A stretch of 64,000 nucleotides of DNA from an uncultured Thermoplasmata archaeon. GTDB lineage: Archaea > Thermoplasmatota > Thermoplasmata > Halarchaeoplasmatales > Halarchaeoplasmataceae. How positions within the stretch are numbered: the stretch's first letter is position 1; the number at the start of each line of letters is the position of its first letter. The stretch spans positions 5,918-69,917 of the forward strand of contig CAYWYD010000003.1 of NCBI GenBank assembly GCA_964462425.1. Direction: 5' to 3'. The notes beneath the pieces were generated by a model. It was not told the DNA's origin, did not search any database, and worked only from the letters and a program-made list of their open reading frames with translations. A program made the translations under genes and the position numbers. This document shows positions 34,469-54,082 of the stretch, one piece after another.

Positions 34469-37400
34469 TCACAATTTGTACTCGTCTTCACATACCTTTT
34501 GGTCGATCCGGTCCATCTCTCTTTCCAATTCGGGCAGTGTCATTCTCCTTTCTTTTTCTTCTTCGCCTCTCTTTCTCCAAGCTTCTACACCAAGCCTCGC
34601 GATAACTATGGCTATGACTACACCTGCAAAAACAAGATAATAGGGGATATCGAACCTTCTTATCTCAAAATTTAAGCTCACTATTTTGCTGTTACCGGCT
34701 CTGTCCCAAGCCCTCACCTCCACGGTGTGATCGCCTGCCGAGAGTCCGGCAAAAGTGTATTCCGTGTTTTCACCAGCGAGTATCCATTCTCCTTGGTCTA
34801 GCCGTATCTCGTAGTACTCTATCCCGCTGGGCTCGGCTTCGCCCTGCCATTCCACGGTGACGAATCGATCACTCAACTCCGTTCCTCCAGAAGGAGATGT
34901 GATCGTGATCTGGGGTGAGGCGGTATCGATAAGGAAAGTCACGCTTTCTTTACCCACTCTCTCACTCTTATCTACCGCCTTGACCTCAACGGTGTACTCG
35001 CCGTCCTCCAATCCCTCTAATACGTATTCGGTGGAATCCCCTATATTTATCCACTCTTCATCGACCTTTATCTCGTAGTGCTTTAGCTCGACATTTCTCT
35101 CTATATTCTCAAATACCCATCTGACGGTCACCTCGTCGGTGGAAAATATGGAGCCATCATCCGGCGAGACTATTCTGACCGGCGGCGAGGTGGCATCGAC
35201 GGTCACCGTAACGGTATCGGTCTCTCTCCAACCGGTTTTATCCCAGGCTCTAACCGAGATCTCGTACTCGCCGTCCTGGAGATCGGTCAGTTTGAATTCC
35301 TTAGCACCTCCAACATTTTCCCAATGTCTATCACAGACCCTGATCTCGTGAAAATCCGCATTTTCGGATGTCCACTTGACCGTGAAATTATCTGACCTTA
35401 TCACCTGATCTTCTTCAGGCGATATTATCTCGATCTTTACCGTCTTCACGCTGAACTCTATGCTGTCAGAATCGGAATTACCGTTATCGTCTTCCGCTCT
35501 TACCTGAACTTCGTAGTCACCGTCCTCTAGATCATCATACCTATGTTCACCTTCCTCATCGGGTTCTATCCACTTTCCTTCCTCGTCTCCTGGCCCGTCC
35601 AACTTTATTTCCACATCTTCGGCGTTCTCTACCAACCACTCTATATCGACTGAAGACCTTCTCTCCGTACTCCCGTTCTCCGGAGAGGTGATCTCGACAT
35701 TTATCCCCGGGTCTACTTGAAAATCGACACTGTGACGTGATCCTATACCGGCGTCATCTTCTCCTCGGACTTTAACTGTATGCTCGCCCTTCTGTAAGTC
35801 CTCGAATGTGTGAGTTCTTTCATCATCGACATCGATCCATTCTTCCTCGTTCAACCTGATCTCGTAATCTATTTCACCTTCTTCACCTTTTGAAGCCCAA
35901 CTAGCCGTCACCTCGGAAGAGTAAACCGTTTCTTGCTCACTAGGTTGCACTATATGTGTTCTAAATTCCTCAACAGGGTCACGTTTTACCAACGGATATC
36001 TATCTTCGCTCTCGTTTCCAGGGATCCCGTAGGACCTGTTCCATATCCCACTATCTCCCACTTCGTGAGAACCTGGATATCTATCCTTGTAGTCCGACCA
36101 ATAATTCCCTTCCTCGCCGTCGTCCCAAGAGTTATTTTTGTTATCGTAAGCCTGTCCTTCTATCTCCGCATCCCCTATTTCATCGCTGTAGAGCTCATTA
36201 TGATATATGTGATTGGGTTTGGAGCGTGTAAGATACACTCCATAAACGTGATTGTTCGAGATATTGTTCCCGAAAACAATATTCTTTTTGGAAGAGGACA
36301 TATAAACCCCGGGCCAACTGTTATTGTATATGTGGTTCTCCGCTATCACGTTTCTATCGGAATTCACCATGTAATAACCGGTGGTGCTGTTATAGAGAGT
36401 GTTGCTTTCCAAAACATTCCTATTGGAGTACCGGAGAGTGATGCTCTGCATCTGTTGGGTTACGGTGTTCTCTACGATTCGATTGTTGTCGGAAAAGCCC
36501 AAAAGTATTCCTATATCTCCGTCCTCGATCTTCTGATCTTTAACGACCATATCGGTACAATTGGCAAGGATGATCTGTGAAGCGTCTTCAGTGATGGTCT
36601 CGCCGCTCACATCTTTTCGATAAATGATGGGTTTTCCATTGACCGTATTGGACTCATCTATAGAATGGGTGTTCCAATGCTCCACCGACCTCCCCCAGAA
36701 GTGCAGGCTATCATCGATCAATTCGTTATCCTCGAAAGAGTTGCTCTCGGAAGAAAACAGGTATATGCCGTAACTATCACTGGAAACGATCCGATTACCT
36801 TCGATTTCGTTGTCGTTGGAACGTCCGATCCGCATTCCGTACCACCGGCTATGATTGATCACGTTATCATATAAACGATTCTTCTCAGAGTGTGTCAGAT
36901 AGATACCGTAATTATCATTGAAAGATTGAGTACCGCTGAGCGTGTTATCGGTGGACTTGTAAACATATATACCTATGTCATTGGTGAACAGCTCAGTTTT
37001 TTCTACGCTGTTCTTTTCTGACTCTCTGAGTTCTACTCCCTTACCGTTGTAGGACGCGTTGTTTTCAGATAGGTGGTTCTCGGGAGAAGAACTGAGCACT
37101 ATACCACGATCATGGTTGCTCACCGAATTTTCCATGAGCTCGTTGCCGTCGGATTTTTCCAACCATATCCCTCGACCATAGACCGGATAGTGAGACTTTT
37201 TAACGTGATTTCCCTCTATCTTGTTTCCAATGGATGAGGAGACATATATACCGACATGATTGTTTACCATTTTATTATCGACTATCACATTTTCAGTGGA
37301 CTCCTTCAAATGGATGCCGTAGGAGTTGAAAGAAACTTTGTTGTTCGCTAGCCTTCCGTTTTCGGTGCCGTTCAGGACCACACCGCTGTTGCCTGAACTA

Positions 37401-40400
37401 GCGTCTCCACTGCGATTCGCATCGTGGAGTTTATTGTTCTTCACTATGAAGTGATCCGAGACTTCTTCGAATGTCAAAGCCGAGCTTTCTTCCTTACCGC
37501 TCAAATCATACCATTCGATCACATAGGGATCTTCTTCTTCGCCAGTTCCTGGCCATCCTTCTTGTCCCGCCATCTCCTCCAATTCTTCGTTTCCGGTGAT
37601 GTGGATAGGATCTCTCTCTAGATAAAAGGAAAAGTCGATAGATTCGGTCACATCATCATCGATAGACCTGACTTCGATCCTGTGTTCACCGCCGTTCATC
37701 TCCTCGAAAACGTGATCGGTCTCGTTTCCAACATCTATCCAGTCCTTGTCGTTCAGCCTGATCTCGTGACCTTCAATATTATATGATATCCACCTCACCT
37801 CGAGTTCGCCCTCACCTGTGACCTCTTTGTCCTCGGGGAAGGTGATGTTCAGATAGGGTGAAGTGTCCACGGAAAAGTTCACGCTCTCGGTCACGGTCTC
37901 CGAAGTCGACCTCACGTCTAAGATATGATCTCCATCTTCGACTCCTTCGAACACGTAACTCGTATCCCCACCTACGTCTATCCAGTCCTTATCATTCAAC
38001 CTGATCTCATGGCCAGTTACATTATAAGAAGTCCACGCTGCTTCAACATCGCTCTCCCGTACGATCTCACCTTCCGCCGGAGATTCGATCCTTATATGCG
38101 GGTCAGTTTTAACGGTAAAAGTCACCGAGTTTTTGACACTCTTTTTATCCCCTACCGCTTTGATCTCTGCGGTATATTCACCATCGTCTAGGCCTTCAAA
38201 AGTGTACGAGTCGTTTTCTCCAACGTCTATCCAATCTTCCTGGCCCAATCTTACCTCGTGATATTGACTCCGTTTAGAGATCCATTTTAACTTAACGTTA
38301 GATCCCCTGATGATCTCTCCCTCCTCGGGAGATATTATTTCTGCACTAGGAACCGCGGCGTTGTAAACCGCCAAAGCGTAATCCTGGTTAGGTCGACTGT
38401 CATTGTTCGCATCCGCCGGGACGTTCGTTCCTATCACTCTCACCGTATAAGTTCCATCTTCGACCTCTTCAGACGGGATGTAAACGTTCTCCACGTTGTT
38501 CGTGTCGTCCCGACCGTCGCCGTTGGGATCGAAATCTTCCATCGCGGGAGCATCGGGTCGAGTCCAGCCCTGATCGAAGGCGTTACCATTGTAAACGCTC
38601 CCGTCGGGTGCCTTTACTTCCAGATCAAGGTCGTTCTTCAATGTTCGATTATCTCCACTTAAGGCGTTCTTGTCCGTCCATCCTAATGTTATCTTCAGTG
38701 GTTCACCCTCTCTTTCCCGCTTTACCTCGTACTCCTCCACATCGCCGGTTTCTAACGATGTTTTTTGATCTTCGAGCATGAAAGGAACCGGATCGTCTTT
38801 AGGATACTCCAGTTTAGATATGTCCACCATGCCCCAGCCTTCGTCCTTGTTCGGTATCGGCCCGGTCTCGCAGCCTCCGGAGTCGAGATCGTGGGCGGTA
38901 TTTATCAGCAGAGATCTTACCATAGCGGGACTGGGTTTTTCACCGAAGTTCTCATCGTACCACTCCACCACGACAGAAGCGGCTCCCGCTACAGCGGGAG
39001 TCGACATGGAAGTACCGGACATCCATTCGTAAGTGGCTCCTTTTGAATAGGCCGGGTGATCCAGGGAAAGTACGTTTTCTCCCGGAGCGACGACGTCGGG
39101 CTTCACCCGATTATCCTGCGTCCAACCTCTAGAACTGAATCGCGATACACTAGCAGGGTTTTCAGTATCTCCACCCCCATAATCGCTGCCGTCGGGAACA
39201 TAACTCTCAGTAGCTCCGATAGTTATCACGTTCTTAGCATTACCGGGGCTCCCGATGGTCTGCTCCTGCGCCCCTGAATTTCCCGCGGAAACGGTTATCA
39301 CCATGGGCTGATTTCCGGTCGTATTTCTATCAGCGTCTCTCACCGCTTGATCGAATATCTCGTCGGACGCAGTATATTCGCCGGCGGTGGTAGCTCCCCA
39401 CGAGTTGGTGTGAACGTAGGCGTCGGCTTCCTGCTTCGGTACTTCGATTATATCGTAGTAATCGGGATCCACCCATCCTGGATCGAATATCTTTGCAGCG
39501 TAGATTTTAGATTCGGAAGCCAAACCCTGAGCCATGTAATAGGGTCCGAAACCGGGATACTCGCCTTTCTCTCCACTTCCTTGATAGGTGTTTCCAGCCG
39601 CCGATCCAGTGGTGTGGGTCCCGTGGCCGTGACTGTCGCTCCAGTCGTCATCGTCAAGGTCTTCGAATCCGTGCCCCCCTATCACCCTACCGGTCAGGTC
39701 CGGATGTCCCGCGTCACCGATAGTTCCGTTTCCTATCCCGGTGTCTCCCACAGCTATGGTCACGTTCTCTCCAGTATAACCGAGTTGGTTGATGTAAGCA
39801 CCAAAATCACCGTATTTCCTGTAAGGAGAACCGATGTCGTCCTGCTCGTCGTCCATTATCCACGCCCCGCCGCCTATGATCTGACTTTCGATCTCGGAGT
39901 GGAGTTCGGGCTCCCGGTACTGGGAGATATAGTACACTTCTTTCATCCTAGCTAAGTTTCTCAGCTCCGCCTTAGATGTGATATTGAGAGTGAGACCGTG
40001 CTCGAATCTATCGAGTTCTTGATGATCTGAAACCGGAAGTTTTGATGCTATCGACATCACATCATCGGTGCTGAGCTCGGGATTGAATTTGACATTGACT
40101 TTGTCGGGTTCGAGTTGAGGATCAAACTTGTAAGCGGGGTGATAGATCCCGACCCAGTCCACGAACGACAAGTCTTCAACTTCTACCGCGGTCTCCGGCG
40201 TCATGCTCACTTCATAGGCGTAATTGGGGATGTAATTGATCACCTCCACGCCTTTATTCTCCAGTTCCTCTCTCCAATCGGGACTCACCGGGCCGAGCAT
40301 GTGGACGATGTAAAGTCCTTCCTTCCCGGGTTCGTATTCTTCGATGCTGAGATCGGAAGCGATCTCGGGTTCTTCTTCGGTGAAGTCGAAAGTATGTTCT

Positions 40401-40708
40401 TTGACAGATATCTCCGTACGAGCCGGTAATATATTGACCTCTACACCTCTAGACTTCAACCCATGAGCTAACTTTCCGTTTGTCTTTACTAGAGCAAATT
40501 CACCGTAGTCATGGATGACGCTGAGGTCTAAGCCACTCAAAAGGCCTTCATTCCTCAACCCTTCCATTTCCACCAATATGATCTGTTCGTCCGACTTCAT
40601 ATTTGATCTCGAGATGGGATCGATACTTCCAGCAGCAGAAACGAAGGTGGCCCCTATGATCAGAAGCGAAGATAAGAGGGTCAGTACTTTCACGTTCAGA
40701 TTTCTCAT
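34469..40708 (-). CDS. Giant (2079 aa) cell-surface protein: signal peptide, propeptide-like region, S8 subtilisin-like protease, Ig/FN3-like repeats, parallel beta-helix (PbH1/NosD-like) array, further Ig-like repeats, C-terminal TM anchor
   Basis: The S8 catalytic triad sits in VAVGDTGIGNG (D322), HGHGTHTTGSAAG (H362) and GTSMSTPAVAGAAS. There are many N-x-I-x-x-N/GIYL beta-helix rungs. Three copies of EIRLNDKDWIDVG...YTxEV... FN3-like modules are present. The C-terminus reads YYLVFAGVVIAIVIARLGV followed by RKRGEEEKERR. Confidence 0.8.
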   Translation of the reverse strand: MRNLNVKVLTLLSSLLIIGATFVSAAGSIDPISRSNMKSDEQIILVEMEGLRNEGLLSGLDLSVIHDYGEFALVKTNGKLAHGLKSRGVEVNILPARTEISVKEHTFDFTEEEPEIASDLSIEEYEPGKEGLYIVHMLGPVSPDWREELENKGVEVINYIPNYAYEVSMTPETAVEVEDLSFVDWVGIYHPAYKFDPQLEPDKVNVKFNPELSTDDVMSIASKLPVSDHQELDRFEHGLTLNITSKAELRNLARMKEVYYISQYREPELHSEIESQIIGGGAWIMDDEQDDIGSPYRKYGDFGAYINQLGYTGENVTIAVGDTGIGNGTIGDAGHPDLTGRVIGGHGFEDLDDDDWSDSHGHGTHTTGSAAGNTYQGSGEKGEYPGFGPYYMAQGLASESKIYAAKIFDPGWVDPDYYDIIEVPKQEADAYVHTNSWGATTAGEYTASDEIFDQAVRDADRNTTGNQPMVITVSAGNSGAQEQTIGSPGNAKNVITIGATESYVPDGSDYGGGDTENPASVSRFSSRGWTQDNRVKPDVVAPGENVLSLDHPAYSKGATYEWMSGTSMSTPAVAGAASVVVEWYDENFGEKPSPAMVRSLLINTAHDLDSGGCETGPIPNKDEGWGMVDISKLEYPKDDPVPFMLEDQKTSLETGDVEEYEVKREREGEPLKITLGWTDKNALSGDNRTLKNDLDLEVKAPDGSVYNGNAFDQGWTRPDAPAMEDFDPNGDGRDDTNNVENVYIPSEEVEDGTYTVRVIGTNVPADANNDSRPNQDYALAVYNAAVPSAEIISPEEGEIIRGSNVKLKWISKRSQYHEVRLGQEDWIDVGENDSYTFEGLDDGEYTAEIKAVGDKKSVKNSVTFTVKTDPHIRIESPAEGEIVRESDVEAAWTSYNVTGHEIRLNDKDWIDVGGDTSYVFEGVEDGDHILDVRSTSETVTESVNFSVDTSPYLNITFPEDKEVTGEGELEVRWISYNIEGHEIRLNDKDWIDVGNETDHVFEEMNGGEHRIEVRSIDDDVTESIDFSFYLERDPIHITGNEELEEMAGQEGWPGTGEEEDPYVIEWYDLSGKEESSALTFEEVSDHFIVKNNKLHDANRSGDASSGNSGVVLNGTENGRLANNKVSFNSYGIHLKESTENVIVDNKMVNNHVGIYVSSSIGNKIEGNHVKKSHYPVYGRGIWLEKSDGNELMENSVSNHDRGIVLSSSPENHLSENNASYNGKGVELRESEKNSVEKTELFTNDIGIYVYKSTDNTLSGTQSFNDNYGIYLTHSEKNRLYDNVINHSRWYGMRIGRSNDNEIEGNRIVSSDSYGIYLFSSESNSFEDNELIDDSLHFWGRSVEHWNTHSIDESNTVNGKPIIYRKDVSGETITEDASQIILANCTDMVVKDQKIEDGDIGILLGFSDNNRIVENTVTQQMQSITLRYSNRNVLESNTLYNSTTGYYMVNSDRNVIAENHIYNNSWPGVYMSSSKKNIVFGNNISNNHVYGVYLTRSKPNHIYHNELYSDEIGDAEIEGQAYDNKNNSWDDGEEGNYWSDYKDRYPGSHEVGDSGIWNRSYGIPGNESEDRYPLVKRDPVEEFRTHIVQPSEQETVYSSEVTASWASKGEEGEIDYEIRLNEEEWIDVDDERTHTFEDLQKGEHTVKVRGEDDAGIGSRHSVDFQVDPGINVEITSPENGSTERRSSVDIEWLVENAEDVEIKLDGPGDEEGKWIEPDEEGEHRYDDLEDGDYEVQVRAEDDNGNSDSDSIEFSVKTVKIEIISPEEDQVIRSDNFTVKWTSENADFHEIRVCDRHWENVGGAKEFKLTDLQDGEYEISVRAWDKTGWRETDTVTVTVDATSPPVRIVSPDDGSIFSTDEVTVRWVFENIERNVELKHYEIKVDEEWINIGDSTEYVLEGLEDGEYTVEVKAVDKSERVGKESVTFLIDTASPQITITSPSGGTELSDRFVTVEWQGEAEPSGIEYYEIRLDQGEWILAGENTEYTFAGLSAGDHTVEVRAWDRAGNSKIVSLNFEIRRFDIPYYLVFAGVVIAIVIARLGVEAWRKRGEEEKERRMTLPELEREMDRIDQKVCEDEYKL

Positions 40709-40866: not shown

Positions 40867-41196
40867 GTGGGGTTTTCAACCGTGGCAGTGGATGAGGTAA
40901 AAAAGATAAAGAAGGCGGAAAAAAAGGCTCTCGAAAGAGTGAAAAAGGCAAAAAAAGAAGCCGAGAAGATGGTGGAAGAAGCTGAAGAAGAGGCGCAGCA
41001 GGAAAAGGAAGACGAACTCTTCTCTCTCAAAAAAGAACTTGAGGAGAAGAAAGAAGAAGCGAAAGAAGAGGCCGAAAAGAAAGCGGTAGAGATAAGAGAA
41101 GAGGGTGAAAAGGAAGTAGAAAAGATCAAGAGATCCACCAAAGAAGACATTTCAGAAGCCGTCGATCACGTGATAAAAAGAGTTATGGAGGTATGA
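40867..41196 (+). CDS. atpH: A-type ATP synthase subunit H
   Basis: 109-aa K/E-rich coiled coil immediately upstream of atpI. The start is GTG. The TATA box TTTATAAT lies at 40818-40825. Confidence 0.6.
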   Translation: MGFSTVAVDEVKKIKKAEKKALERVKKAKKEAEKMVEEAEEEAQQEKEDELFSLKKELEEKKEEAKEEAEKKAVEIREEGEKEVEKIKRSTKEDISEAVDHVIKRVMEV

Positions 41197-41200
41197 AGCG

Positions 41201-43393
41201 GTGTTCTTTCCGGAGCGCATGAAGGATCTCACCATTCTGGTCCATGATGATCACGTGGAAGACCTTATCGACTCAATACATGAGAGAGGTATAGCTGAAA
41301 TAAGTGACCTCGAGAGGGATAAAGAAGTCAATGAGGTCGTTGAGCCCATGGGCATTTCGGAGCGGATAGGTGAGTTGACGAATTATGATATCAAGTTATC
41401 CTCTATCCTTGATATCTTCGATCGATTAGAACCCGAAAAGAGCGTGATCAAAGAATTCGTCTCTCCCGAAGAGATTAAGAAAACGAGTAGAGAAGAGAAG
41501 GGTCTAAACCAAGTGATTTCAGAGATAGACGAGATGTTCGAAGAACACGGCGAGAAGATATTAGAGTTCGATGAAAAATTGAATAATATAAATAAAAAAA
41601 TGGAGGACCTCGAGCAGTTGAAAAAAGACTTGGAATTGATCTCTTTTCTAGATCTAGAACTGAGTCATCTAGGAGAATCAAAGTTCTCCGTGATAGATGT
41701 CGGCATAACAACGGATCCCTACGAGTTCAAAAAAAATATCGAGGAGTTAGAGTCGTATTTTTATGAAGTGGAAAGGACCCGGGAAGAGGAAGAGAGGTAC
41801 GTGGTGATAGCTGCGGCTTTAATAAAGGATAAAACTGAATTCCAATCTATATTGAGGCAGAGTGACGTCCGGCCTCTGAACTTGAAGGACGTCGAAGGCA
41901 CTCCGAAAGAAGCATTGGAAACTTTTTCTTCCGAAATGAAGGAACTAAAAGAGTCTAAAGAAGATGTTTTGGGAAAATTGAAGTCTCTCAAAGAGGATCA
42001 CGAGAAAGAATATCGGGCTTTAAAGGAAGAACTCGATATACACCGTGAGAAAAAGGAGATTGTTCAGAGATTCGGAAACACGGAAACAACCACGGTGTTG
42101 AAAGGATGGGCCCCGGAAAAAAATACTGAAGAAGTCGAAGAAACTGTGGAAAATGCCAGCGACGGCTATGCAGAAGTGATTACCGAAGAACCCGAGGATC
42201 CTGACGAGGTGCCCACCAAGTTAGACAATCCCAAGATGATAAAGCCTTTCGAGCTTCTAACTCACATGTTCGCACCTCCGCGGTACGACGAGATAGATCC
42301 AACTTTTATCTTGGCTCCAGCCTTCGTCATCTTTTTCGGCCTGATGCTGGGAGACGCTATTTACGGGATCTTGATAATTTTGACCTCCGTTATACTCCTT
42401 CAGGGCATCGGGAAGGTCGAGGAAGGGACAAGAAATTTTTCATTCGTGTTATTGGGAGTCGGTATAAGTACATTTATCTTCGGCATCCTCCAGGGGGGGT
42501 ATCTAGGTCCGGCGCAGGAAGGTCACACCAATCTTTTCGGCAGGTTGGGATTAGATTTCATCAACGAGATGGCCGTCTTAAAAACATTGCAGGGAGAAGG
42601 TCCTTTGGTACTTCTTATAATCTCCTTATTGATAGGTTTGTTCTATCTGAACGCCGGAATATTTCTCCAGTTCGTGAGGTATTTGAAGGATAGGAACTAC
42701 CGAGAGATCCTGAAAGAGAGCGTTTCATGGTGGACACTTCAGGCCGGGGGGGCCATACTCATATCGGGTTATCTTTTCGGATGGGATTATTTTTTCGGAA
42801 CGGAGGCGATGTTTGAACTCACAAGGACGGTCAACATCATAGGAGCTATTTTGACAGGCATCGGCCTTCTACTCATGGTGGTTCGGGCTAAGGGACTATC
42901 ATTTTTCGAGCTGACCGGATTCATAGGAGACTTTCTTTCATTCTCGAGGATACTCGCATTGGGCTTAGCTACTTCTGGGATAGCTTTGACCGTTAACGTG
43001 CTAGCGGATCTTGTTTCGAACAACTCTATCAATCTTCCGATCGCCGCGGCGATACTCATCGGCGGCTTGGCTTTAGTATTGAAAGGATTCAAAGATTCCA
43101 GCAAGCTCGAACAGACTTTGGGATCGATGGTTTCCCTTTTAGGTATTATCAGTTTCATGGGATACGCCGGGATGATAAACCCTAAAATACCGTTCTACTT
43201 CTTCGGCCTTGTGGTCATGATCGTGGGTCATCTGATCAACGCGGTACTTCAAGCTTTAGGCTCTTTCGTTCACTCTTTAAGGTTACAGTACGTGGAATTC
43301 TTCAGTTATTTCTACGAAGGCGGAGGGGCTGAATACGAACCTTTTAAGGCTGAAAGAGAGCATACCAAAATAAAAGAAGAGGTGAAAGGATGA
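41201..43393 (+). CDS. atpI: A-type ATP synthase subunit I (a-subunit, stator/ion channel)
   Basis: 730 aa. The N-terminal half is a soluble coiled coil and the C-terminal half has about 7-8 TM segments with a conserved Arg region. The stop overlaps the atpK start as ATGA. Confidence 0.85.
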   Translation: MFFPERMKDLTILVHDDHVEDLIDSIHERGIAEISDLERDKEVNEVVEPMGISERIGELTNYDIKLSSILDIFDRLEPEKSVIKEFVSPEEIKKTSREEKGLNQVISEIDEMFEEHGEKILEFDEKLNNINKKMEDLEQLKKDLELISFLDLELSHLGESKFSVIDVGITTDPYEFKKNIEELESYFYEVERTREEEERYVVIAAALIKDKTEFQSILRQSDVRPLNLKDVEGTPKEALETFSSEMKELKESKEDVLGKLKSLKEDHEKEYRALKEELDIHREKKEIVQRFGNTETTTVLKGWAPEKNTEEVEETVENASDGYAEVITEEPEDPDEVPTKLDNPKMIKPFELLTHMFAPPRYDEIDPTFILAPAFVIFFGLMLGDAIYGILIILTSVILLQGIGKVEEGTRNFSFVLLGVGISTFIFGILQGGYLGPAQEGHTNLFGRLGLDFINEMAVLKTLQGEGPLVLLIISLLIGLFYLNAGIFLQFVRYLKDRNYREILKESVSWWTLQAGGAILISGYLFGWDYFFGTEAMFELTRTVNIIGAILTGIGLLLMVVRAKGLSFFELTGFIGDFLSFSRILALGLATSGIALTVNVLADLVSNNSINLPIAAAILIGGLALVLKGFKDSSKLEQTLGSMVSLLGIISFMGYAGMINPKIPFYFFGLVVMIVGHLINAVLQALGSFVHSLRLQYVEFFSYFYEGGGAEYEPFKAEREHTKIKEEVKG

Positions 43394-45807
43394 GTTTGTT
43401 CGAAGTGGATATGGATTCAAAAGCACTGATCTTCCTGATCGTTTTGACCACGACTCTACTGCTGTCAGGCATCATAGCGACACAGGGACTAGAAAATGCG
43501 GTCGCGCAGGCTCAAGAGGACGAAGTAGAAGGCAGAGTAGACATACTGGTCTATCATAGAGAGGATGAGGAATATAGAAAAGAGGGTGATGAGATCAAAA
43601 GGTATATGTCCGGCGACTATGAAAATATAACCTTTTCATATAGGAAAGGGGATATACCAGAAGATCGTCAGTTGGAAAATATCTCTTGGAATTTTAAGTT
43701 ATTACAGTTTGATAGTACTGAAGATGACGACGATACCTTTAACAAAATTAATAAAAGTTTGAACAAGGGTGAAGTCGATGAAGGGTTGAAAGATGCTTTT
43801 GATCAGGAAGATATTGAATTAAATCAAAGTGCAGAACTTGAAAAAGAAGAAGAGGGAATTTGGGTCCTCATTGACGGCGAGGAAAAATACCAGATAGAGA
43901 AAGGAGAAAAAGAATTTGAAGTATATAGAGAGGAAGTCTTGGATGATAAATTAGAGAATATTTTTGATTTGAATCGCACAGATTATGAGGAAAGTTTTAA
44001 TGAGAGTTTGAACCAGAGAGAAATTGATGATAAGTTAAAAGAAGCTTTTGAGGAAAATGACTTCAAAATAGTAGGAGACAAACCACAACTCAAAAAAGAA
44101 GATGGTGTGTTTTGGATAATCGATGAGAATATCAAGAAATACAGGATAGAAAAAACCGAAAATGAGTTCAAAGTATATAGAGAGTACCTAGAATTCAAAT
44201 TTGAAAGGGCGGGAAAACATCACCTCACTTTAGATTTGGAATTTGAAAATGAAAACAAAACTTACAGAGACGAACTATCTATAGAGATAGAGAAGGATGA
44301 AAGAGGAACTTTCCTCACGGCTATAGGGGCAGGTCTAGCCGTCGGCATAGCGGGTATGGGCGCCGGTATCGGAGTCGGTATCGCAGGTTCGGCAGGAGCC
44401 GGGACTATAGCGGAGAAACCGGACAAATTCGGAAAATGTTTGGTTTATCAGGCCCTTCCACAGACTCAGGCTATCTACGGCTTACTGATAGCTGTCCTGT
44501 TACTGCTGTTTACAGGGGTCATTGGAGAGGGAACAACTGTTCCACTAACCTTAGGTGTGGCTTCTCTAGGCATCGGCTTAGCCGTTGGTATCGCCGGTCT
44601 ATCCGCCATAGGCCAGGGCATCGCATCTTCTGGAAGCATAGCGGCCTACAGCGAGAAGGAGGAATTATTCGGGAAGGGCATGGTATTTTCCGTCTTACCT
44701 GAAACTCAAGCTATCTACGGACTGCTAGTGGGCATACTGATCATGGTATTTACCGGGTTGTTGGGCGGCAATATCTCAGCCGATCTACTGGGCGACAAAG
44801 GTTTGGGAGTTGCCATGATAACTATCGGTGGAGGTTTAGCCGTAGGCGTAGCCGGTCTCTCCGGTATAGGACAGGGCATCGCCTCGGGAGCCGGTATAGG
44901 CAGCGTCGCGGAAAAAGAGGACCTCTTCGGGAAAGGTATGGTCTTCTCTGTATTACCCGAAACTCAAGCCATTTACGGCCTACTGATAGCGATCTTACTT
45001 ATGGTCTTCTCCGGACTGCTCGGAGGTGGAGCGATAGACGCTATGGCTGGATACTCGGGCTTTGGTCTGGGTCTTATCGGCATAGGTGCGGGCCTAGCCG
45101 TAGGCGTAGCCGGTCTCTCCGGTATAGGTCAGGGTATCGCAGCGGCTAGCGGTATAGGCAGCGTCGCGGAGAAGGAAGAGGTCTTCGGTAGAGCGATGGT
45201 CTTTTCTGTGTTACCTGAAACTCAGGCCATCTACGGCATGCTGATCGCCATATTACTGATGATATTCAGCGGTCTGTTAGGAGGAGATGGTGTCTTGATC
45301 GGCGAAAATACTAGAAGTATACAGATGTTCTTCGGATTGGTCGGTGTAGGGGCTGGCCTTTCAGTCGGTGTAGCCGGTCTCTCTGGAATAGGTCAAGGCA
45401 TCGCCTCGGGCAGCGGGATAGCTACTGTCGCGGAAGATGAGCAGATGTTCGGAAGAGGGATGGTCTTTTCCGTATTACCTGAAACTCAAGCTATCTACGG
45501 TATGCTGATCGCCATATTACTGATGGTCTTCAGCGGGATGATAGGTGGTTCGATACCTCCAGAGAATGATCCCACGTTATCCGGTATTCAGATGGGAATC
45601 GCAGCGGTTGGTGCCGGTCTCGCTATAGGTATAGCCGGCGTGTCCGGCGTAGGTCAAGGTATCACCTCGGGTTCCGCTATCGCCGCCGTGTCAAAGCGTG
45701 AAGAGACCTTCGGTAAGGGCATGATATTCAGCGTGATGTCCGAAACGTTTGCGATCTTCGGCCTGCTGATAGCGATATTCATAATCGTGTTCCTAGGGTT
45801 CATGTGA
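43390..45807 (+). CDS. atpK: A-type ATP synthase proteolipid subunit K/c. It is a fusion of an N-terminal TM, a ~300-aa acidic repeat domain and six covalently linked c-hairpins.
   Basis: There are six tandem units of GAGLAVG(I/V)AGLSGIGQGIA...FGKGMVFSVLPETQAIYGLLIAILLMVF. Unit 1 has PQTQ in place of PETQ. The start is supported by the ATGA overlap with atpI. Confidence 0.85.
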   Translation: MSLFEVDMDSKALIFLIVLTTTLLLSGIIATQGLENAVAQAQEDEVEGRVDILVYHREDEEYRKEGDEIKRYMSGDYENITFSYRKGDIPEDRQLENISWNFKLLQFDSTEDDDDTFNKINKSLNKGEVDEGLKDAFDQEDIELNQSAELEKEEEGIWVLIDGEEKYQIEKGEKEFEVYREEVLDDKLENIFDLNRTDYEESFNESLNQREIDDKLKEAFEENDFKIVGDKPQLKKEDGVFWIIDENIKKYRIEKTENEFKVYREYLEFKFERAGKHHLTLDLEFENENKTYRDELSIEIEKDERGTFLTAIGAGLAVGIAGMGAGIGVGIAGSAGAGTIAEKPDKFGKCLVYQALPQTQAIYGLLIAVLLLLFTGVIGEGTTVPLTLGVASLGIGLAVGIAGLSAIGQGIASSGSIAAYSEKEELFGKGMVFSVLPETQAIYGLLVGILIMVFTGLLGGNISADLLGDKGLGVAMITIGGGLAVGVAGLSGIGQGIASGAGIGSVAEKEDLFGKGMVFSVLPETQAIYGLLIAILLMVFSGLLGGGAIDAMAGYSGFGLGLIGIGAGLAVGVAGLSGIGQGIAAASGIGSVAEKEEVFGRAMVFSVLPETQAIYGMLIAILLMIFSGLLGGDGVLIGENTRSIQMFFGLVGVGAGLSVGVAGLSGIGQGIASGSGIATVAEDEQMFGRGMVFSVLPETQAIYGMLIAILLMVFSGMIGGSIPPENDPTLSGIQMGIAAVGAGLAIGIAGVSGVGQGITSGSAIAAVSKREETFGKGMIFSVMSETFAIFGLLIAIFIIVFLGFM
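44308..45804 (+). repeat. Intragenic tandem repeat: six units of ~240 nt, each encoding one c-subunit helical hairpin
   Basis: A near-identical nucleotide block (...ttctccgtattacctgaaactcaagc(t/c)atctacgg...) recurs about every 240 nt. Confidence 0.85.
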
Positions 45808-45822
45808 TGGAGAACTGATAAT

Positions 45823-46410
45823 ATGCCGATAGAGAAGATAATCGAAAGGATCGAAGAAGAAACGCGGGATAAAATGGATAACATTATCCAAAGGGGGGAA
45901 GAGAGGGCGAAGGAGATCGAGGAAGAGATAGAGAAGGAGAAGGAGCGGAAACTCGAGGAGATGAAAAAGGAAAGGGAAAGAGAGATAAAGACGATGAAAA
46001 ACAGGATCATCTCCCAGGCTAAACTCGAAACTAAGAAGAAAAAATTGAATGTCAGGGAAGAGATGATAAATGACGTCTTTGAGAAAGTGAAGACACGCCT
46101 CGATTCAAAGGGGCCAGAGGAGTATAAAGGCTATCTTAAGCAGGCCATCAAACAAGCCGATAATTTATTGAAAGGTGATTTCAAAATAGAATGTGATCCA
46201 GAGAGCGAGGAGTTGGTGAGACGATTATCAAACGAGATCAATCTAAAGATCGAGATAGAAGCTACCTTAGACACGATCGGAGGTATAAAAGCCATTTCTG
46301 AAAAAGGTTCTACTATCGATTTTACCTTCGAAGCTAACCTGGATAGCAAACGTAAAAAACTGCGAAAGGAGATCTCTGAGATATTATTTCAAGAGAAAGA
46401 GGAGGACTGA
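45823..46410 (+). CDS. atpE: A-type ATP synthase subunit E
   Basis: The N-terminal charged helix is MPIEKIIERIEEETRDKMDNIIQRGEERAKEIEEE. The C-terminal globular domain and the position in the operon also fit. Confidence 0.8.
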   Translation: MPIEKIIERIEEETRDKMDNIIQRGEERAKEIEEEIEKEKERKLEEMKKEREREIKTMKNRIISQAKLETKKKKLNVREEMINDVFEKVKTRLDSKGPEEYKGYLKQAIKQADNLLKGDFKIECDPESEELVRRLSNEINLKIEIEATLDTIGGIKAISEKGSTIDFTFEANLDSKRKKLRKEISEILFQEKEED

Positions 46411-46413
46411 ACG

Positions 46414-47544
46414 GTGTTAGAAAGTCTGATAAATACATTGGGTCTGCCTACTTTCGTGCTGATAGTGGTAGGCGCATCTTTATTGATAGTGGTCATCCTA
46501 TTGATGAGTTATTTTAAAGTCCTGATATCCATAACCAACTTCAGTTTCCCCAATGCTAAATTGAGAGCGAGAGGCAATCCGTTCATAAAGAGAGACATTT
46601 TGAAATCTTTAGTGGAGAGTACTAGTCTCAACGAAGTTTTTTCCAAGATAAGAGAGGAAAACTATGAGATCCCAAAAGAAGAAACCGAAGAACTTTCTTC
46701 GATAGAAAAGAAACTTGAAGAAAACGTTATCGAATCCCTAAAAAAAGCACATATGGCGGCTCCAACGAACTTCAAACCCTTCGTAAATACATGGCTGATG
46801 AAATATGACCTCAAGATGGTCAAGAGAGCGATGAAGGACATATTCAGAGAAAAAGGAGAATTAGATAAGAAATTGATCCCCGTGAAAACGATAGATGAAG
46901 AAAAAGTGGAGGAGATGACATCCGCTAGGAATATGCAGGAACTAGTATCGGTCCTGAAGGAAACAAAATTTGAAGAACCTCTTAAGGGAAAAGAAAACGT
47001 GGATAATTTTTTCGAGATTGACGTGGAATTGGATAAATTCCTTTTCCAGGAGATAAGAAGTTCCGCCAATCAGGTAGAGGGCGAGGAAAGATCAACGGTC
47101 AGATACTTTTTCGGGAAATATACCGATGTGCTAAATCTCAAGACAATACTTAGAGGGTTGAGAGAAGATATAGAAGAGGAAAGATTGAAAGAGTCCTTAT
47201 TACCTCCAGGTAGGGAATTGGAAGATTGGAAGCTGGAGAACATGGTCGAAGCTTCGGACCTCGACGAAGCGCTGATAGAACTGGAGGGTACCTCTTACGA
47301 TGAATTGAGAGAAGCGAAATCCACTCTGTCTTATTTTGAGCTGGAAAAAAAATTAGACGAGGAACTTCTAAAAGTAGTTTCAGAGATCCACAGTCAAGAG
47401 ATACTAACCGTAGGCCCGATGCTAAAATTTTTGATCGCCAAAGAGATGGAACTGCGGAACCTTAAAGTATTGATCAGAGGGATCAAGGAAGGACTAAATC
47501 CAAAGAAGATAAGTGATCTTATGATAATGGAGGGAGCAGGATGA
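46414..47544 (+). CDS. atpC: A-type ATP synthase subunit C (V-type d homologue)
   Basis: 376-aa helical protein in the conserved position between E and F. The stop overlaps atpF as ATGA. Confidence 0.75.
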   Translation: MLESLINTLGLPTFVLIVVGASLLIVVILLMSYFKVLISITNFSFPNAKLRARGNPFIKRDILKSLVESTSLNEVFSKIREENYEIPKEETEELSSIEKKLEENVIESLKKAHMAAPTNFKPFVNTWLMKYDLKMVKRAMKDIFREKGELDKKLIPVKTIDEEKVEEMTSARNMQELVSVLKETKFEEPLKGKENVDNFFEIDVELDKFLFQEIRSSANQVEGEERSTVRYFFGKYTDVLNLKTILRGLREDIEEERLKESLLPPGRELEDWKLENMVEASDLDEALIELEGTSYDELREAKSTLSYFELEKKLDEELLKVVSEIHSQEILTVGPMLKFLIAKEMELRNLKVLIRGIKEGLNPKKISDLMIMEGAG

Positions 47545-47876
47545 AGGTCGTTGTAGTAGGAAAAAAGGATATGGCAGTCGGTTTTTCGCTCGCTGGGGTG
47601 AACGAAGTCTTCACTCCTGAAGATGACCATGAAGCAAAAAAGAGGCTCGATAAGCTAATGCAATCGACCGATGTCGGAGTGATATTACTCTCAGAAAGTA
47701 TAGCCAAAGACATCAGCGAGCATCTTCAGCAGAAAAAGAAGAGAAAAGATGATGTTTATCCCGTTATAGTGGAGATACCCGATAAGGAAGGTCCCGTGGA
47801 AGGAAAAGAAGATCCCCTCCAGGACAAGATAAAAAGAGCCGTAGGTATTGATGTCACGACCCAGGAGGAAAAATGA
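47541..47876 (+). CDS. atpF: A-type ATP synthase subunit F
   Basis: MKVVVVGKKDMAVGFSLAGVNEVF is the canonical subunit F N-terminus. Confidence 0.85.
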   Translation: MKVVVVGKKDMAVGFSLAGVNEVFTPEDDHEAKKRLDKLMQSTDVGVILLSESIAKDISEHLQQKKKRKDDVYPVIVEIPDKEGPVEGKEDPLQDKIKRAVGIDVTTQEEK

Positions 47877-47946
47877 TCATGTATAGATATGATTTTGACG
47901 TTCAAGACGAATCCCATTTCAAGAGACGTTCAGGAGGAAGAGAAGT

Positions 47947-50900
47947 ATGAGAGAGGAAGCAGAAGAGAAGATCAGCAGGATGAAGGAGCCCGAGGACGAA
48001 GAAGAAGGCCGGATCATTCACGTCGCGGGTCCGGTCGTCGAAGCCGACGGTCTCAGAGGAGTCGAGATGTATGAAGTCGTGGAAGTTGGAGAAGAAGGTC
48101 TGATCGGCGAAGTCATCGAACTCGACGAAGACGTTGCGACCATACAGGTCTACGAGGAAACCGGCGGTGTGCGGCCTGGAGAACCGGTCGAAAGGACGGG
48201 AGAACCTCTTTCATTAGAACTCGGTCCCGGCCTGATCGAGCAGATCTACGACGGCATCCAGAGACCGTTAGCGGACATCGCCGAGGAGACCGGCGACTTC
48301 ATCCGCAGAGGCGTAGACGTATCTCCTTTGGACGAAAGCAGGGAGTGGGAATTCAGACCAGAGGTAGAAGAGGGAGACGAGCTGGAACAGGGTGATATCT
48401 TAGGTACCGTAGAGGAAACTAAAACTGTGGATCACAAGGTCATGGTCCCTCCGGGTAAAGGAGGTAAAGTCAAAGAGATCGTATCGGAAGGAGAATACAC
48501 CATCGATGAAACCATCGCGGTTTTGGAGAATGAAGATGGTGAAGAAGAGATAAGCATGAAACAGCGCTGGCCCGTGCGAGTGGGCAGGCCGATTAAGGAC
48601 AAAAAGCAGCCCGGCGAGCTTTTGGTTACTGGACAGAGAGTTTTAGACACTTTCTTTCCTCTCGCTAAGGGAGGTACCGCGGCTATCCCTGGGGGCTTCG
48701 GGACGGGGAAGTGCGTCACGGGAGACACCCCCGTTTTGTTCGCTGACGGCTCGAAGGAACCTATAGGAGAGGTGTACGAAGAGTACAAGTCTGAGGGTGA
48801 AAAGAAGGTCGATAACGAAGAAACACTGATCGAACTGGAGGAACCTCTCGATATACTCTCTATGGAGGACGGAAGGATAGCCGAAAAGGAAGCTACTTGC
48901 CTCTACAAAGGTAAGACAGATACGACTGTCGTGATAAATACGAAATCTGGGCGAGAAGTCGAACTCACACCTATCCATAAATTGTTCGTTCTGACTCCAG
49001 ATATGGAGATCACAGAGAAGCCCGCGGGAAAGATCGAAGAAGGAGAGACTCTACTAGCTCCAAGAAGACTTCCTATAGAGGAAAAAAGTGAAGCTGAAAG
49101 GCTGGTCGTGGAAGACCTTCTGCCCGAAAAGAGAGTCCACGGTGAAGACTTCGATAAAACGGTTGAAGCCATAGGTGACCTCGAAGAAAAGTTCGGCAGT
49201 AGGAAGACACTCGCCGAAAGATTAGATATCAGCGAAGACGTTCTTACCGAGTACGCTCTAGGAAGGAACAGACCTAAAGCGAAGGTCGCCGAGAAGATAT
49301 TTGAAGAGAAGGGGATCGATCATGAAATAAGGAACGTTAAGAGTGAAAGGAGATCTACACCCATCCAGGTACCGTCGAAATTAGACGAAGACCTTGCCGA
49401 ACTTCTAGGACTTCTACTTGGAGACGGCACTGTTAAACCGTCTACCGTCCATTTCTACAATAACGATGAAGAACTCCTGTCAAGGGTGGATGAGCTTTTA
49501 AGCGGGCTTTTCGATGTGGAAATGGAGAGGGAACACGCCCGAACGGTGGATTCGACGAAAGTCAACTGTAAAACTTTGAGAGATCTTCTTGTTTCCCTCG
49601 GCTTTCCGGAAGAGAACAAGTCGAGAAATTGTAGCATTCCAAACAAGGTGCTTAAAAGCGGAGAGGACGTGATCGCGGCCTTCGTTAGAGGTTATTATCT
49701 CGCGGACGGAAGTTTCTCCAAATACGAAGTCGAGATAAACACTTCCAGCGAGGAGATGGCCAGCGATCTGACTTATGCTTTAACGAGGATCGGCACGCCT
49801 CCAAGACTCGGTTCAAAAAACACATATGCGAATAAAAGCTACAGGATAAGGATCTCTGGAGAAGAGCTCGAGAATTTCTATGAGAAAACAGCTGCGGACC
49901 ATCAAAAATATGAAAAGATCGAGAAATATTTGGAAAAGGATAGCAAACATTTCAGAGGAATCAATTCGGTAGAAGTGTCGCCCGAACTCGTGGAAGAGAA
50001 GTTCGAAGAGAGCGGGATAACGAGAAAAGAGTTTAAAGAGAACGGCATAAAGATAGCGAATTACACGACTCAGGAAGAAAAAATGAGCGTTCCAGTGTTC
50101 AGGAAGTTCTCCTCTATGACTGCTGACGATGATCTGGTAAAAATGGCGGAGAACCATTTGGATCATTTCTTACCCGATCCGGTCGAATCCGTCGAAGTGA
50201 AAGATGAAACCAAGGATGTTTACGACTTGACAGTGCCGGAAACCCACAACTTCGTAGGAGGTAACTCACCGATGGTACTCCACAACACGGTAATTCAGCA
50301 TCAATTGGCCAAATGGAGTGACGCCGACATAGTCGTTTACGTCGGCTGTGGAGAGAGAGGAAACGAGATGACCGAAGTTCTAAGAGATTTTCCGGAATTA
50401 GAAGATCCGTGGAGCGGAGAATCGCTGATGAAGAGGACCGTCCTCATCGCGAACACAAGTAACATGCCGGTGGCGGCGAGAGAGGCTTCCGTTTTCTCCG
50501 GCATCACTATAGCTGAATATTATAGAGATATGGGTTATAACGTTGCGTTGATGGCGGATTCAACTTCCCGTTGGGCGGAAGCTTTGAGAGAGATCTCCGG
50601 GAGGCTCGAAGAGATGCCCGGAGAGGAAGGTTTCCCGGCTTATTTGGCCTCTGAGTTAGCTTCCTTTTACGAGAGAGCCGGTATCTGTGATCTTTACGGG
50701 GGAAGAGAAGGCTCAATATCGGTTATAGGTGCGGTCAGTCCTTCTGGAGGCGATTTCTCCGAGCCGGTAACACAGAACACCCTGAGGATAGTGCAGGTCT
50801 TCTGGGCTTTGGATACCGAGCTGAAGAACAGGAGACATTTCCCGGCTATCGATTGGTTGACCTCTTATTCCCTCTACCTCGACGAGGTCAGCGACTGGTG

Positions 50901-51405
50901 GAAAGATAACGTCAACGAAAACTGGAAGTCGCTGAGGAGAGAGACGATGCGGCTTTTGGAGAAAGAGTCGGAACTTGAAGAGATCGTTCAGCTGGTAGGA
51001 CCCGATGCACTTCCACCCTCCGACCAGTTCGCACTCCAGGCCGCTAGAGTGATAAGAGAAGACTTCCTGCAGCAGAACGCATTTCACGACGTTGACACGT
51101 TCTGCGAACCGGAGAAACAGTTCAGGATGCTGCAGATGATGATGCGGTTCTATGCGACCGGGCAGGAAGCTGTGGAAGAGGGTGTTCCGGTCGATGATCT
51201 ATCAGAGATGGACGTGCTCGAAAAGATCAGCAGGATGTCCAATCATCCGTCCGAAGAATACGAGGATAGGTTCAACGAGATACAGATGGAGATGAACGAG
51301 GAATTCCAAGAGTTGGAAGAGTCCCTGGAACTATCTTCTCCGCTTGAAGGCGAGGAGCCAGTAACCGAAACGGATGAAGAAAATTCTCCAGAGGAGGAGG
51401 TATAA
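47947..51405 (+). CDS. atpA: A-type ATP synthase catalytic subunit A, interrupted by an in-frame intein in the P-loop
   Basis: [11 protein letters not shown]... The P-loop PGGFGTGK is split from [11 protein letters not shown] by a 525-aa insertion. C-terminal A-subunit motifs are intact. Confidence 0.92.
48712..50286 (+). mobile_element. Intein with LAGLIDADG homing-endonuclease domain, inserted at the VMA-a (P-loop GK|T) site
   Basis: It starts with Cys ([10 protein letters not shown]...) and ends ...VLHN with Thr as the +1 residue. The two LAGLIDADG blocks are [14 protein letters not shown] and [12 protein letters not shown]. Splicing would restore GGFGTGKTV. Confidence 0.85.
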
Positions 51406-51407
51406 AG

Positions 51408-52796
51408 ATGAGCGACGAGATGTCTAAAAGGACCGAATATCAGAATGTCACGGAAGTCTCCGGACCGCTGATGGTGGTGGAGGGTATAAGCGGAGTCGCC
51501 TACGACGAGATAGCTAAGATCAAATTGCCGAGCGGTGAAGAAAGATTGGGTCAGGTCCTGGAGGCGGAAACCGACAGGGCCGTGCTTCAGGTCTTCGCCG
51601 GTACGAGAGGACTGGATACCGACGAAACGAGCGTCCAGTTCACAGGAGAAGTGATGAAGTTCGGAGTCTCTAGAGAGCTTTTAGGTAGAGTTTTCAACGG
51701 TATAGGCGAACCCATAGACGGAAGTCCCGATATAATCCCCGAGGAGAGAAGAGATATAAACGGAGATCCGATAAATCCCTCGACCCGGGAGTACCCTAGG
51801 GAGTTCATCCAGACCGGTGTTTCCACCATAGACGGTATGTTGACCCTGGTGAGAGGACAGAAATTACCGATATTCAGCGCCTCCGGACTTCCACACAACA
51901 GTTTGGCGGCTCAGATAGCGCGGCAGGCCGAAGTCCTCGGCGAGGAGGAAGAATTCGCGGTGGTTTTCTGCGCCATGGGTATAACTGCGGAAGAGGCCAA
52001 CTTCTTCAGGAGAGACTTCGAGAGGACCGGCGCCTTGGAACGATCGGTTTTATTTTTGAACCTGGCGAACGACCCGGCGATCGAGAGGATAATAATCCCG
52101 AGGATGGCTCTGACCGCCGCCGAGTACCTCGCTTTCGAAGAGGACATGCAGGTCCTGGTGATCATGACCGATATGACGAATTATTGTGAGGCGCTGAGAG
52201 AGATAGCTGCTGCGAGAGAAGAGGTGCCCGGTAGAAGAGGGTATCCAGGGTACATGTACACCGATCTGGCGAACATCTACGAGAGGGCCGGGAGAATCCT
52301 GGACAGAGAGGGTTCCATAACGATGATCCCCATACTGACGATGCCCGACGACGATATAACTCATCCCATACCCGATCTTACCGGTTACATCACTGAAGGA
52401 CAGTTGGTCTTCTCGAGAGAACTGCACAGGAAAGGGATAAGGCCTCCGATAACCCCAGGAGAGAGCCTTTCTAGACTGATGGAAGAAGGTATAGGCGAAG
52501 AGAGAACGAGAGAGGACCATTCCGACGTGAGCAACCAGCTTTATGCGGCCTATGCCGAAGGTCTAGACCTGCGTGATCTCGTGGCTGTCGTCGGAGAAGA
52601 GGCATTGAGCGATAGAGATCAGCTTTACCTGGATTTTGCCGAGGAATTCGAAGAGAACTTTATACACCAGGGTGAAGAGGAAGACAGGACTATAGACGAA
52701 ACTCTAGACCTGGGTTGGGAACTTTTGACCGCTATACCGAAGAAAGATCTCAAGAGGATCGACGAGAAGTGGATCGAGAAGTATTATCCCGACTGA
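51408..52796 (+). CDS. atpB: A-type ATP synthase subunit B
   Basis: [16 protein letters not shown]... and [10 protein letters not shown]-like segments are typical of the non-catalytic B subunit. It starts 3 nt after atpA. Confidence 0.92.
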
Positions 52797-54081: not shown

Positions 54082-54082
54082 A

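Follow-up and report, generated by a model that had tools for sequence, protein, structure and literature searches.

We analysed a 64,000-nucleotide stretch of contig CAYWYD010000003.1 from an uncultured Thermoplasmata archaeon (hereafter the window) and, within it, the gene atpK for subunit K, the rotor proteolipid of an A-type ATPase. This subunit consists of six fused hairpins, and our results make it probable that its five ion sites are each shared between neighbouring hairpins, that the junction between successive copies of the subunit is siteless, and that the rotor is likely a ring of 12 hairpins translocating about 3.3 ions (probably Na+) for each adenosine triphosphate (ATP). As judged from its homologs, the siteless first hairpin is real, yet it is a design strictly kept throughout a large family about which little has been written, and not an oddity of this genome. 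The gene and those parts of its product on which the argument turns are listed below, with E+n and E-n counting residues from the helix-2 Glu or from the residue in its place.

43390..45807, plus strand: atpK, encoding subunit K with its 805 amino acids (open reading frame call, Pfam)
44305..44529, plus strand: hairpin 1, residues 306-380, no site of its own (Val329, Gln358), predicted donor to the hairpin 2 site
44374..44376, plus strand: codon GTC of Val329, where hairpins 2-6 have Gln in helix 1
44455..44478, plus strand: L356-P-Q358-T359-Q360-A-I-Y363, with Gln358 (CAG, 44461-44463) in the place of the carboxylate
44545..44769, plus strand: hairpin 2 (Gln409, Glu438), complete Na+-type site, with hairpin 1 as the predicted donor
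44803..45027, plus strand: hairpin 3 (Gln495, Glu524), site complete
45061..45285, plus strand: hairpin 4 (Gln581, Glu610), site complete
45325..45549, plus strand: hairpin 5 (Gln669, Glu698), site complete
45586..45804, plus strand: hairpin 6 (Gln756, Glu785), own site complete with hairpin 5 as the predicted donor, own donor face degenerate
45745..45759, plus strand: T786-F787-A-I-F790, with Phe for Gln at E+2 and Phe for Tyr at E+5

Six separate matches to PF00137 (ATP-synt_C) were found in subunit K (E 9.3e-95; 311 bits against a cutoff of 24), and the six hairpin units align readily with one another. A membrane carboxylate midway along helix 2 is present in five of them, encoded by GAA in every case, and is missing from hairpin 1, which reads GIGVGIA in helix 1 and LPQTQAIYG in helix 2. 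An earlier note, made from the letters of the window, had claimed that this hairpin (44308-44550, corresponding to residues 307-387) lacks both the helix-1 Gln and the carboxylate; both motifs, as well as the cag codon of Gln358 at 44461-44463, can be read directly in the assembled DNA. Its description of hairpins 2-6 as carrying GIGQGIA holds for the Gln, which is present in all five, but not for the rest of the motif, as hairpin 2 reads AIGQGIA and hairpin 6 reads GVGQGIT. Hairpin 6 also departs from the others in helix 2 (MSETFAIFG), where it is without Gln at E+2 and without Tyr at E+5. A different carboxylate that might replace the missing one, looked for because the earlier note would have given way to it, is absent from the membrane-embedded portion of hairpin 1, whose acidic residues are limited to E342 and D345 (cytoplasmic loop) and E380 (outer end).

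When compared with proteins of known structure, hairpins 1-2 align best with NtpK of Enterococcus hirae (2bl2_A, E 3.6e-17). LPQTQAIYG aligns to LPGTQGLYG of NtpK, such that L356, T359, Q360 and Y363 correspond to L61, T64, Q65 and Y68, respectively, and Gln409 and Glu438 align to Q110 and E139. The structural comparison was based on an alignment-based, full-length AlphaFold2 (AF2) model with a mean predicted local distance difference test score (pLDDT) of 81 and values above 90 across the hairpins. This model superposes on 2bl2_A with a root-mean-square deviation of 1.5 Å and a template modelling (TM) score of 0.88 over 149 columns, and the Acetobacterium woodii ring (4BEM) is another structural match. 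The comparison with NtpK that had been suggested earlier gave agreement for hairpins 1-2 in both the Q/E site residues and the donor residues. In NtpK, the second hairpin (E139 and Q110) and the first (L61(O), T64 and Q65) together bind the Na+ ion, and Y68 of the first hairpin stabilises E139 (PMC2359735). The rule used by ProAD for Na+ sites in multi-hairpin subunits has the same form: [Q/E]-Xn-E within the hairpin plus [S/T]-[S/T/Q]-x-x-Y in helix 2 of the preceding hairpin (PMC11738941 supplement). The sites of hairpins 2-6 satisfy this rule, and hairpin 1 fails it, having V...Q of its own and T-F-x-x-F in the hairpin that would precede it. The residue set is the published Na+ motif (PMC2359735 and the rule of PMC11738941), as had been claimed before. 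Apart from these positions, hairpin 1 carries a second invariant Gln, Gln354 (44449-44451), at E-4 within VYQALPQTQ; this position is Ser in the active hairpins (VFSVLPETQ) and again Gln in helix 2 of NtpK (LILQLLPGTQ).

In the arrangement that we propose: each ion site would be built from two adjacent hairpins, with hairpin n giving the helix-1 Gln and the helix-2 Glu, and hairpin n-1 giving a main-chain carbonyl (E-2), Thr (E+1), Gln (E+2) and, in a stabilising role, Tyr (E+5); five complete sites would lie within one polypeptide, between hairpins 1/2, 2/3, 3/4, 4/5 and 5/6, which agrees with the five complete sites per six hairpins already counted in the earlier note; and the sixth position, where hairpin 6 of one copy would meet hairpin 1 of the next, would be deliberately siteless, with Val329 and Gln358 on one side and Phe787 and Phe790 on the other. 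Hairpin 1 would then be a working structural unit and a ligand donor, not a decayed repeat. Its counterpart in two-hairpin V-type subunits, of which E. hirae NtpK is an example, would be their N-terminal hairpin, and K would differ from these subunits by four additional active hairpins in the middle. The invariance of Leu356, Thr359, Gln360 and Tyr363 is explained if hairpin 1 donates ligands to the site of hairpin 2. The earlier site model was right in taking hairpin 1 to be siteless but missed this sharing between neighbours, in which Phe787 and Phe790 belong to the dead site and Thr359, Gln360 and Tyr363 serve hairpin 2.

As for Gln358 itself, its neutral side chain probably mimics an occupied Glu, so that the position would pass the stator arginine and the lipid without an ion. 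One basis for this idea is the mechanism of the A. woodii hybrid ring, reportedly described by Matthies and coworkers in 2014. The other is that the dead hairpin in c1 of A. woodii and Clostridium aceticum reads Q....QT (PMC7911925).

Direct evidence for sharing comes from the junctions between hairpins. The best 120 homologs were split into hairpins using a hidden Markov model made from the six units of the window, and all 818 internal hairpin junctions in these proteins were examined. Each of the 31 internal hairpins lacking the carboxylate is preceded by a hairpin with a degenerate donor set in which Tyr at E+5 is gone, whereas a degenerate donor precedes a live hairpin at only 10 of 787 junctions (Fisher 8e-48, uncorrected for phylogeny). 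The Tyr is replaced by F, M or S depending on the lineage, and the junctions concerned are 2-3, 3-4, 4-5, 5-6, 6-7, 8-9 and 9-10; such variety in both residue and position argues for repeated events. In our protein, four determinants have been lost together at the junction of hairpin 6 with hairpin 1 (Val329, Gln358, Phe787 and Phe790).

Conservation was assessed by aligning 50 six-hairpin homologs. All 50 have Gln358, Thr359, Gln360 and Tyr363, and at position 329 Val is found in 45 sequences, Ala in 4 and Thr in one. In 34 hairpins at related genomic loci, the codon equivalent to that of Gln358 is CAG in 18 and CAA in 16, which points to silent substitutions while selection keeps the Gln itself. 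None of the active hairpins exceeds hairpin 1 in conservation, the mean majority fraction being 0.80 for hairpin 1 as compared to 0.73-0.78 for the active ones. It is also 72% identical to hairpin 1 of another Thermoplasmata clade, 66% to that of Methanofollis and 62% to that of an Undinarchaeon, whereas its identity with any other hairpin is 57% or less; hence, it is a positional ortholog across phyla. In every 4-, 6- and 12-hairpin relative examined, hairpin 1 is siteless, and the suggestion that the loss is particular to this gene has to be given up.

Two other explanations of Gln358 deserve consideration. That it represents a sequencing or assembly error, or that hairpin 1 is a decaying repeat, can hardly be credited. 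A single G-to-C change would convert GAG to CAG, and no other support was found for this explanation; the Glu codons of the other five hairpins, all GAA, differ from CAG at two positions. The identical K protein is present on an independently assembled contig of GCA_905333205.1, the invariant Gln is encoded by both CAG and CAA in the related hairpins, hairpin 1 is the most conserved of the hairpins, and Val329, Phe787 and Phe790 change along with Gln358. Since the hairpin units are only 63-80% identical in DNA, a collapse of repeats during assembly is also unlikely. Pseudogene decay, repeat collapse and sequencing error of hairpin 1 were all rejected on the grounds of the second assembly, codon use, DNA divergence and conservation. 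A second possibility, that Gln358 serves as a neutral site for Na+ or water or otherwise keeps an ion, so that all six positions would function, is likewise very improbable. Although Gln is able to ligate Na+, and Thr786 is kept alongside, hairpin 1 has no carboxylate within the membrane, and four of the six determinants have been lost together, the helix-1 Gln to Val and the neighbour's Gln and Tyr to Phe. Furthermore, such hairpins are classed as non-binding by ProAD (PMC11738941) and by Mulkidjanian et al. (PMC2359735), and the QT hairpins of A. woodii-type c1 are described as non-functional (PMC7911925).

Hairpin numbers in the 120 homologs cluster at 4 (11 proteins), 6 (63), 12 (14) and 13 (18). 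All 63 six-hairpin proteins begin with a hairpin of the form [V/A/T]|xPQTQ..Y and end with Q|..ET[F/Y]..[F/L], and all 252 of their middle hairpins are Q|..ETQ..Y. The siteless first hairpin also occurs in the 4- and 12-hairpin proteins and in 12 of the 18 with 13 hairpins; the six exceptions include the Methanopyrus proteins, in which all hairpins are intact. Hosts of the family are halophilic or soda-lake Thermoplasmata (relatives of 'Ca. Saliniplasma'), Methanomicrobiales, Undinarchaeota and Nanoarchaeota, and those of the six-hairpin homologs are halophilic Thermoplasmata, Methanomicrobiales (e.g., Methanofollis fontis, 482 amino acids) and Undinarchaeota. Some K subunits carry 12 hairpins in a single chain, arranged as 6+6 (L012, L015 and P0004-6), as 6+3+3 (L013 5953-9351, in Thermoplasmata BLK2-2.bin.13) or as one dead plus 11 live hairpins (L014, L027 and P0001), and in all of them a siteless QTQ hairpin opens each module and an ETF..F hairpin closes it. 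The A/V ring of Thermus thermophilus has 12 single-hairpin chains per PDB entry. As separate genes carry 4 or 6 hairpins and the single chains all total 12, as does the T. thermophilus ring, a 12-hairpin ring is favoured. With reasonable though not high confidence, then, the ring in our archaeon would have 12 hairpins contributed by two copies of K, and this would give 10 sites per turn and about 3.33 ions per ATP. The 12-hairpin ring with 10 sites proposed in the earlier note thus appears, from the hairpin counts of relatives, to be the best-supported stoichiometry.

A few census proteins have hairpin counts that do not divide 12, namely seven (P0050, P0053 and P0058) or nine (P0035), and their internal repeats are identical in sequence. 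These could reflect repeat collapse or expansion in metagenome assembly, or real rings of 14 or 18 hairpins. Another unusual homolog (L020, PWFW01000126.1), on a contig binned as a Halanaerobiaceae bacterium, is a Thermoplasmata-type multi-hairpin K with 72% identity and a 6+6 plan, cut at the contig end; this assignment is likely due to binning contamination.

With regard to the coupling ion, the five sites of the 50 aligned homologs keep each of the six published Na+ determinants without exception, and the relatives originate from soda-lake and hypersaline sediments. Because the determinants are invariant and the habitat is hypersaline and alkaline, Na+ is the best prediction, and the coupling ion is probably Na+. 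As for energetics, the phosphorylation potential equals n times F times the ion-motive force (dGp = n*F*(ion-motive force); PMC9171764). A decrease in n from 4 to 3.33, as expected when 12 sites are reduced to 10, raises the ion-motive force threshold for synthesis by 20%. The earlier note had held that the lower gearing favours ATP synthesis at low ion-motive force, and this has to be reversed: a lower n needs a higher force (PMC9171764). The gain of a lower n, if any, is either that fewer ions are spent per ATP when the respiratory chain pumps few of them, or that a steeper gradient is reached when the enzyme works as a pump; the same benefit has been argued for V-type c subunits (PMC9171764).

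Both the size of the ring and the identity of the ion could be otherwise. Three or four K copies would give 18 or 24 hairpins with 15 or 20 sites, and an ion/ATP ratio other than 3.3. The K ring of E. hirae, with 20 hairpins (10 chains per entry), and the existence of 13-hairpin relatives speak for such a possibility, which we nevertheless consider unlikely, as 4-, 6- and 12-hairpin forms occur in one clade and the 6+6, 6+3+3 and 1+11 chains total 12. A ring of 18 cannot be tiled by 4- or 12-hairpin proteins, while a ring of 24 would need two copies of seemingly monomeric rotors and would be larger than any known ring. We also doubt, to a similar degree, that the five sites carry H+ in vivo, with Q/ET/Q/Y being retained by ancestry or the enzyme being promiscuous. 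In favour of H+, the specificity is predicted from the motif only, and some archaeal enzymes bearing this motif, such as that of M. acetivorans, use both ions. Opposed to this are the invariance of the six Na+ determinants described above, the soda-lake or hypersaline habitat of the relatives, which favours a Na+ cycle, and the fact that the loss of any one determinant marks H+ enzymes (Mulkidjanian et al. PMC2359735; ProAD PMC11738941). A 12-hairpin, Na+-coupled ring with five sites per subunit remains our preferred reading, although several points count against it: the site geometry is carried over from E. hirae, and would apply here by analogy; Na+ specificity is a prediction from the motif, and some motif-bearing enzymes may also use H+; ring size is inferred from relatives, among which 13-hairpin forms exist, and the E. 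hirae ring has 20 hairpins; there are a few 7- and 9-hairpin relatives, which may be assembly artefacts; the sequences in the census share kinship, so that the Fisher p value overstates their independence; and the genome may hold another K gene.

E. hirae NtpK (2BL2) is the known protein closest to our subunit in both sequence and structure. Its first hairpin is also without a carboxylate and donates Leu, Thr, Gln and Tyr, and in both proteins the sites lie only inside the polypeptide, never between polypeptides. In contrast, NtpK has Gly at the carboxylate position where our protein has Gln, ends its last helix with ETY..L instead of ETF..F, and has no N-terminal extracellular domain. With two hairpins and one site (50%), it forms a 20-hairpin ring of 10 copies, whereas subunit K here, with six hairpins and five sites (83%), would probably form a 12-hairpin ring of two. 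In terms of class, K does not fit a definition of V-type subunits by two hairpins (four helices, ~16 kDa), since it has six hairpins and an N-terminal domain of ~300 amino acids. It does fit a definition by reduced sites, having a siteless N-terminal hairpin, which aligns with H1-H2 of NtpK, and fewer carboxylates than hairpins.

Among multi-hairpin archaeal subunits, the K subunit of Methanocaldococcus jannaschii reportedly has three hairpins with two carboxylates, as Ruppert and coworkers are said to have found in 1999. It would resemble our protein in having one carboxylate-less hairpin, as proposed in the earlier note; the logic of our subunit is that of multi-hairpin K subunits in which sites are fewer than hairpins. 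Its three hairpins would give 8 sites on a 12-hairpin ring, as compared to 10 for the six hairpins here. A module of the M. jannaschii kind, dead-live-live(ETF..F), was found within the 6+3+3 protein mentioned above (L013). A homolog search with hairpin 1 alone returned single-hairpin subunits only, and no two- or three-hairpin relatives such as M. jannaschii K. The K subunit of Methanopyrus kandleri is a monomeric 13-hairpin rotor (Lolkema and Boekema 2003, as cited in PMC2359735). It is among our homologs (P0024) and, like our protein, has many hairpins with the same ETQ..Y motif in one chain. Unlike our protein, in which one hairpin of six is dead, it has 13 of 13 hairpins intact and no N-terminal domain. 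In c1 of A. woodii and C. aceticum (the F/V hybrid ring, 4BEM), the ring is also mostly active with few siteless positions, and Gln-Thr likewise takes the place of Glu-Thr. That subunit is F-type, however, its dead hairpin is the second of two, and the ring is heteromeric (c1 with c2/3), whereas ours is made of one fused polypeptide. Methanofollis K shares the whole six-hairpin plan, with a dead first hairpin and ETF..F in the last, but has neither signal peptide nor PKD domain.

A siteless hairpin that donates ligands is known from NtpK, from eukaryotic V-type c and from A. woodii c1 and is reported for M. jannaschii K as well. Archaeal c/K subunits appear in reviews with 1, 2, 3 or 13 hairpins (PMC9171764), and six-hairpin K subunits have already been annotated in cultured Methanomicrobiales and processed by ProAD. 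No chain with more than two full hairpins was found in the PDB. A literature search, which omits most subscription journals, found no paper on a 4/6/12-hairpin series or on a plan with six hairpins and five sites.

The hairpins of our protein are preceded by an N-terminal region of the following composition.

43390..43512, plus strand: predicted Sec signal peptide, with Lys11, a hydrophobic core at residues 12-29 and the small-residue cleavage motif ATQG33 or AQA41 (sequence reading)
43531..43707, plus strand: N-terminal half of a PKD-like beta-sandwich, residues 48-106, predicted to be extracytoplasmic (PKD_4/PKD matches of relatives, AF2 strands with pLDDT 77-85)
43708..44184, plus strand: insertion specific to this protein, residues 107-265, very acidic (tandem-repeat score)
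44185..44298, plus strand: C-terminal half of the PKD-like domain, residues 266-303 (AF2)

An equivalent A-Q-G motif is present in relatives. The full-length AF2 model shows a beta-sandwich at residues 50-106 plus 266-302 with pLDDT values of 77-91, the last PKD strand of which continues without a break as helix 1 of hairpin 1. A single-sequence AF2 prediction for the first 310 residues reached a pLDDT of only 36. Relatives at 82% identity match PKD_4 at 7e-14, while the K protein of the window has no Pfam PKD match (PF00801/PF18911) above threshold, most likely because the 159-residue insertion splits the domain. This insertion consists of two tandem repeats of ~78 amino acids (residues 107-181 and 191-265), with a score of 151 as compared to 40 ± 6 for shuffled sequence. 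The repeats show a weak TagH_SH3-like match, and AF2 confidence is low for them. In 1.84 billion representatives, 26 weak homologs of the repeats were found (best E 4e-11), within large, unrelated surface proteins that carry CARDB, Big_7 or DUF2254 domains. Judging from these predictions, the mature rotor would carry an extracellular domain on each copy of K, rotating with the ring; such a placement fits the N-terminus-outside topology of c/K subunits. No description of a PKD domain fused to a c-ring or rotor was found in the literature searched, which covers few subscription journals.

The gene lies in an operon with the order H-I-K-E-C-F-A-B, each gene having its own Pfam match, and atpK is placed between the genes for subunits I and E. 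Its ATG overlaps the TGA stop of atpI (ATGA), and a GAGGTGA ribosome-binding site is present upstream. The other genes of the operon are as follows.

40867-41196, plus strand: atpH, upstream operon gene (Pfam)
41201-43393, plus strand: atpI, upstream operon gene (Pfam)
45823..52796, plus strand: atpE, atpC, atpF, atpA (with an intein) and atpB, downstream operon genes

The atpA gene (47947-51405, 1152 amino acids) contains an intein with a LAGLIDADG homing-endonuclease domain at approximately residues 264-780. No atpD was found after atpB (51408-54126), and ten other mid-sized open reading frames were tested, none of which is atpD; subunit D is therefore probably encoded elsewhere. The gene following atpB, on the minus strand, is TiaS-like (agmatidine synthase). 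Just upstream of the operon, positions 34469-40708 on the minus strand encode a 2079-amino-acid protein which, on reading its sequence, is predicted to be secreted. It bears the putative subtilase catalytic motifs GHGTHT and SGTSMSTP, a predicted C-terminal membrane anchor, and what appear to be many repeated immunoglobulin-like modules of ~85 amino acids plus beta-helix-like repeats. An Rfam scan of the window gave no match.

Although the atpK gene of the window is intact and ordinary for its family, the family itself is of interest in several respects. The covariation of Glu in hairpin n with Tyr at E+5 of hairpin n-1 provides evidence, from sequence only, for a geometry of shared sites that had until now come from crystal structures. 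The 4/6/12-hairpin family fills the gap between V-type pumps, with sites in half of the hairpins, and fully occupied A-type rings, and the fusion of a PKD domain to the rotor adds an unexplained feature. It is possible, though we lean slightly against it, that these archaea tune the ion/ATP ratio of a fixed 12-hairpin rotor by the way in which the hairpins are packaged into genes, and that the copies in halophilic Thermoplasmata additionally bear a rotating, secreted domain of the PKD type. If this were true, the count would be 9 sites (3.0 ions per ATP) with 4-hairpin genes, 10 (3.33) with 6-hairpin genes, 10 also with 6+6 chains, 9 with 6+3+3 chains and 11 (3.67) with 1+11 chains. The family would then offer a naturally occurring set of rotors, bearing sites in 9, 10 or 11 of their 12 hairpins, on which ion/ATP tuning could be followed. 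As cultured Methanomicrobiales carry the same six-hairpin subunit, these predictions are testable.

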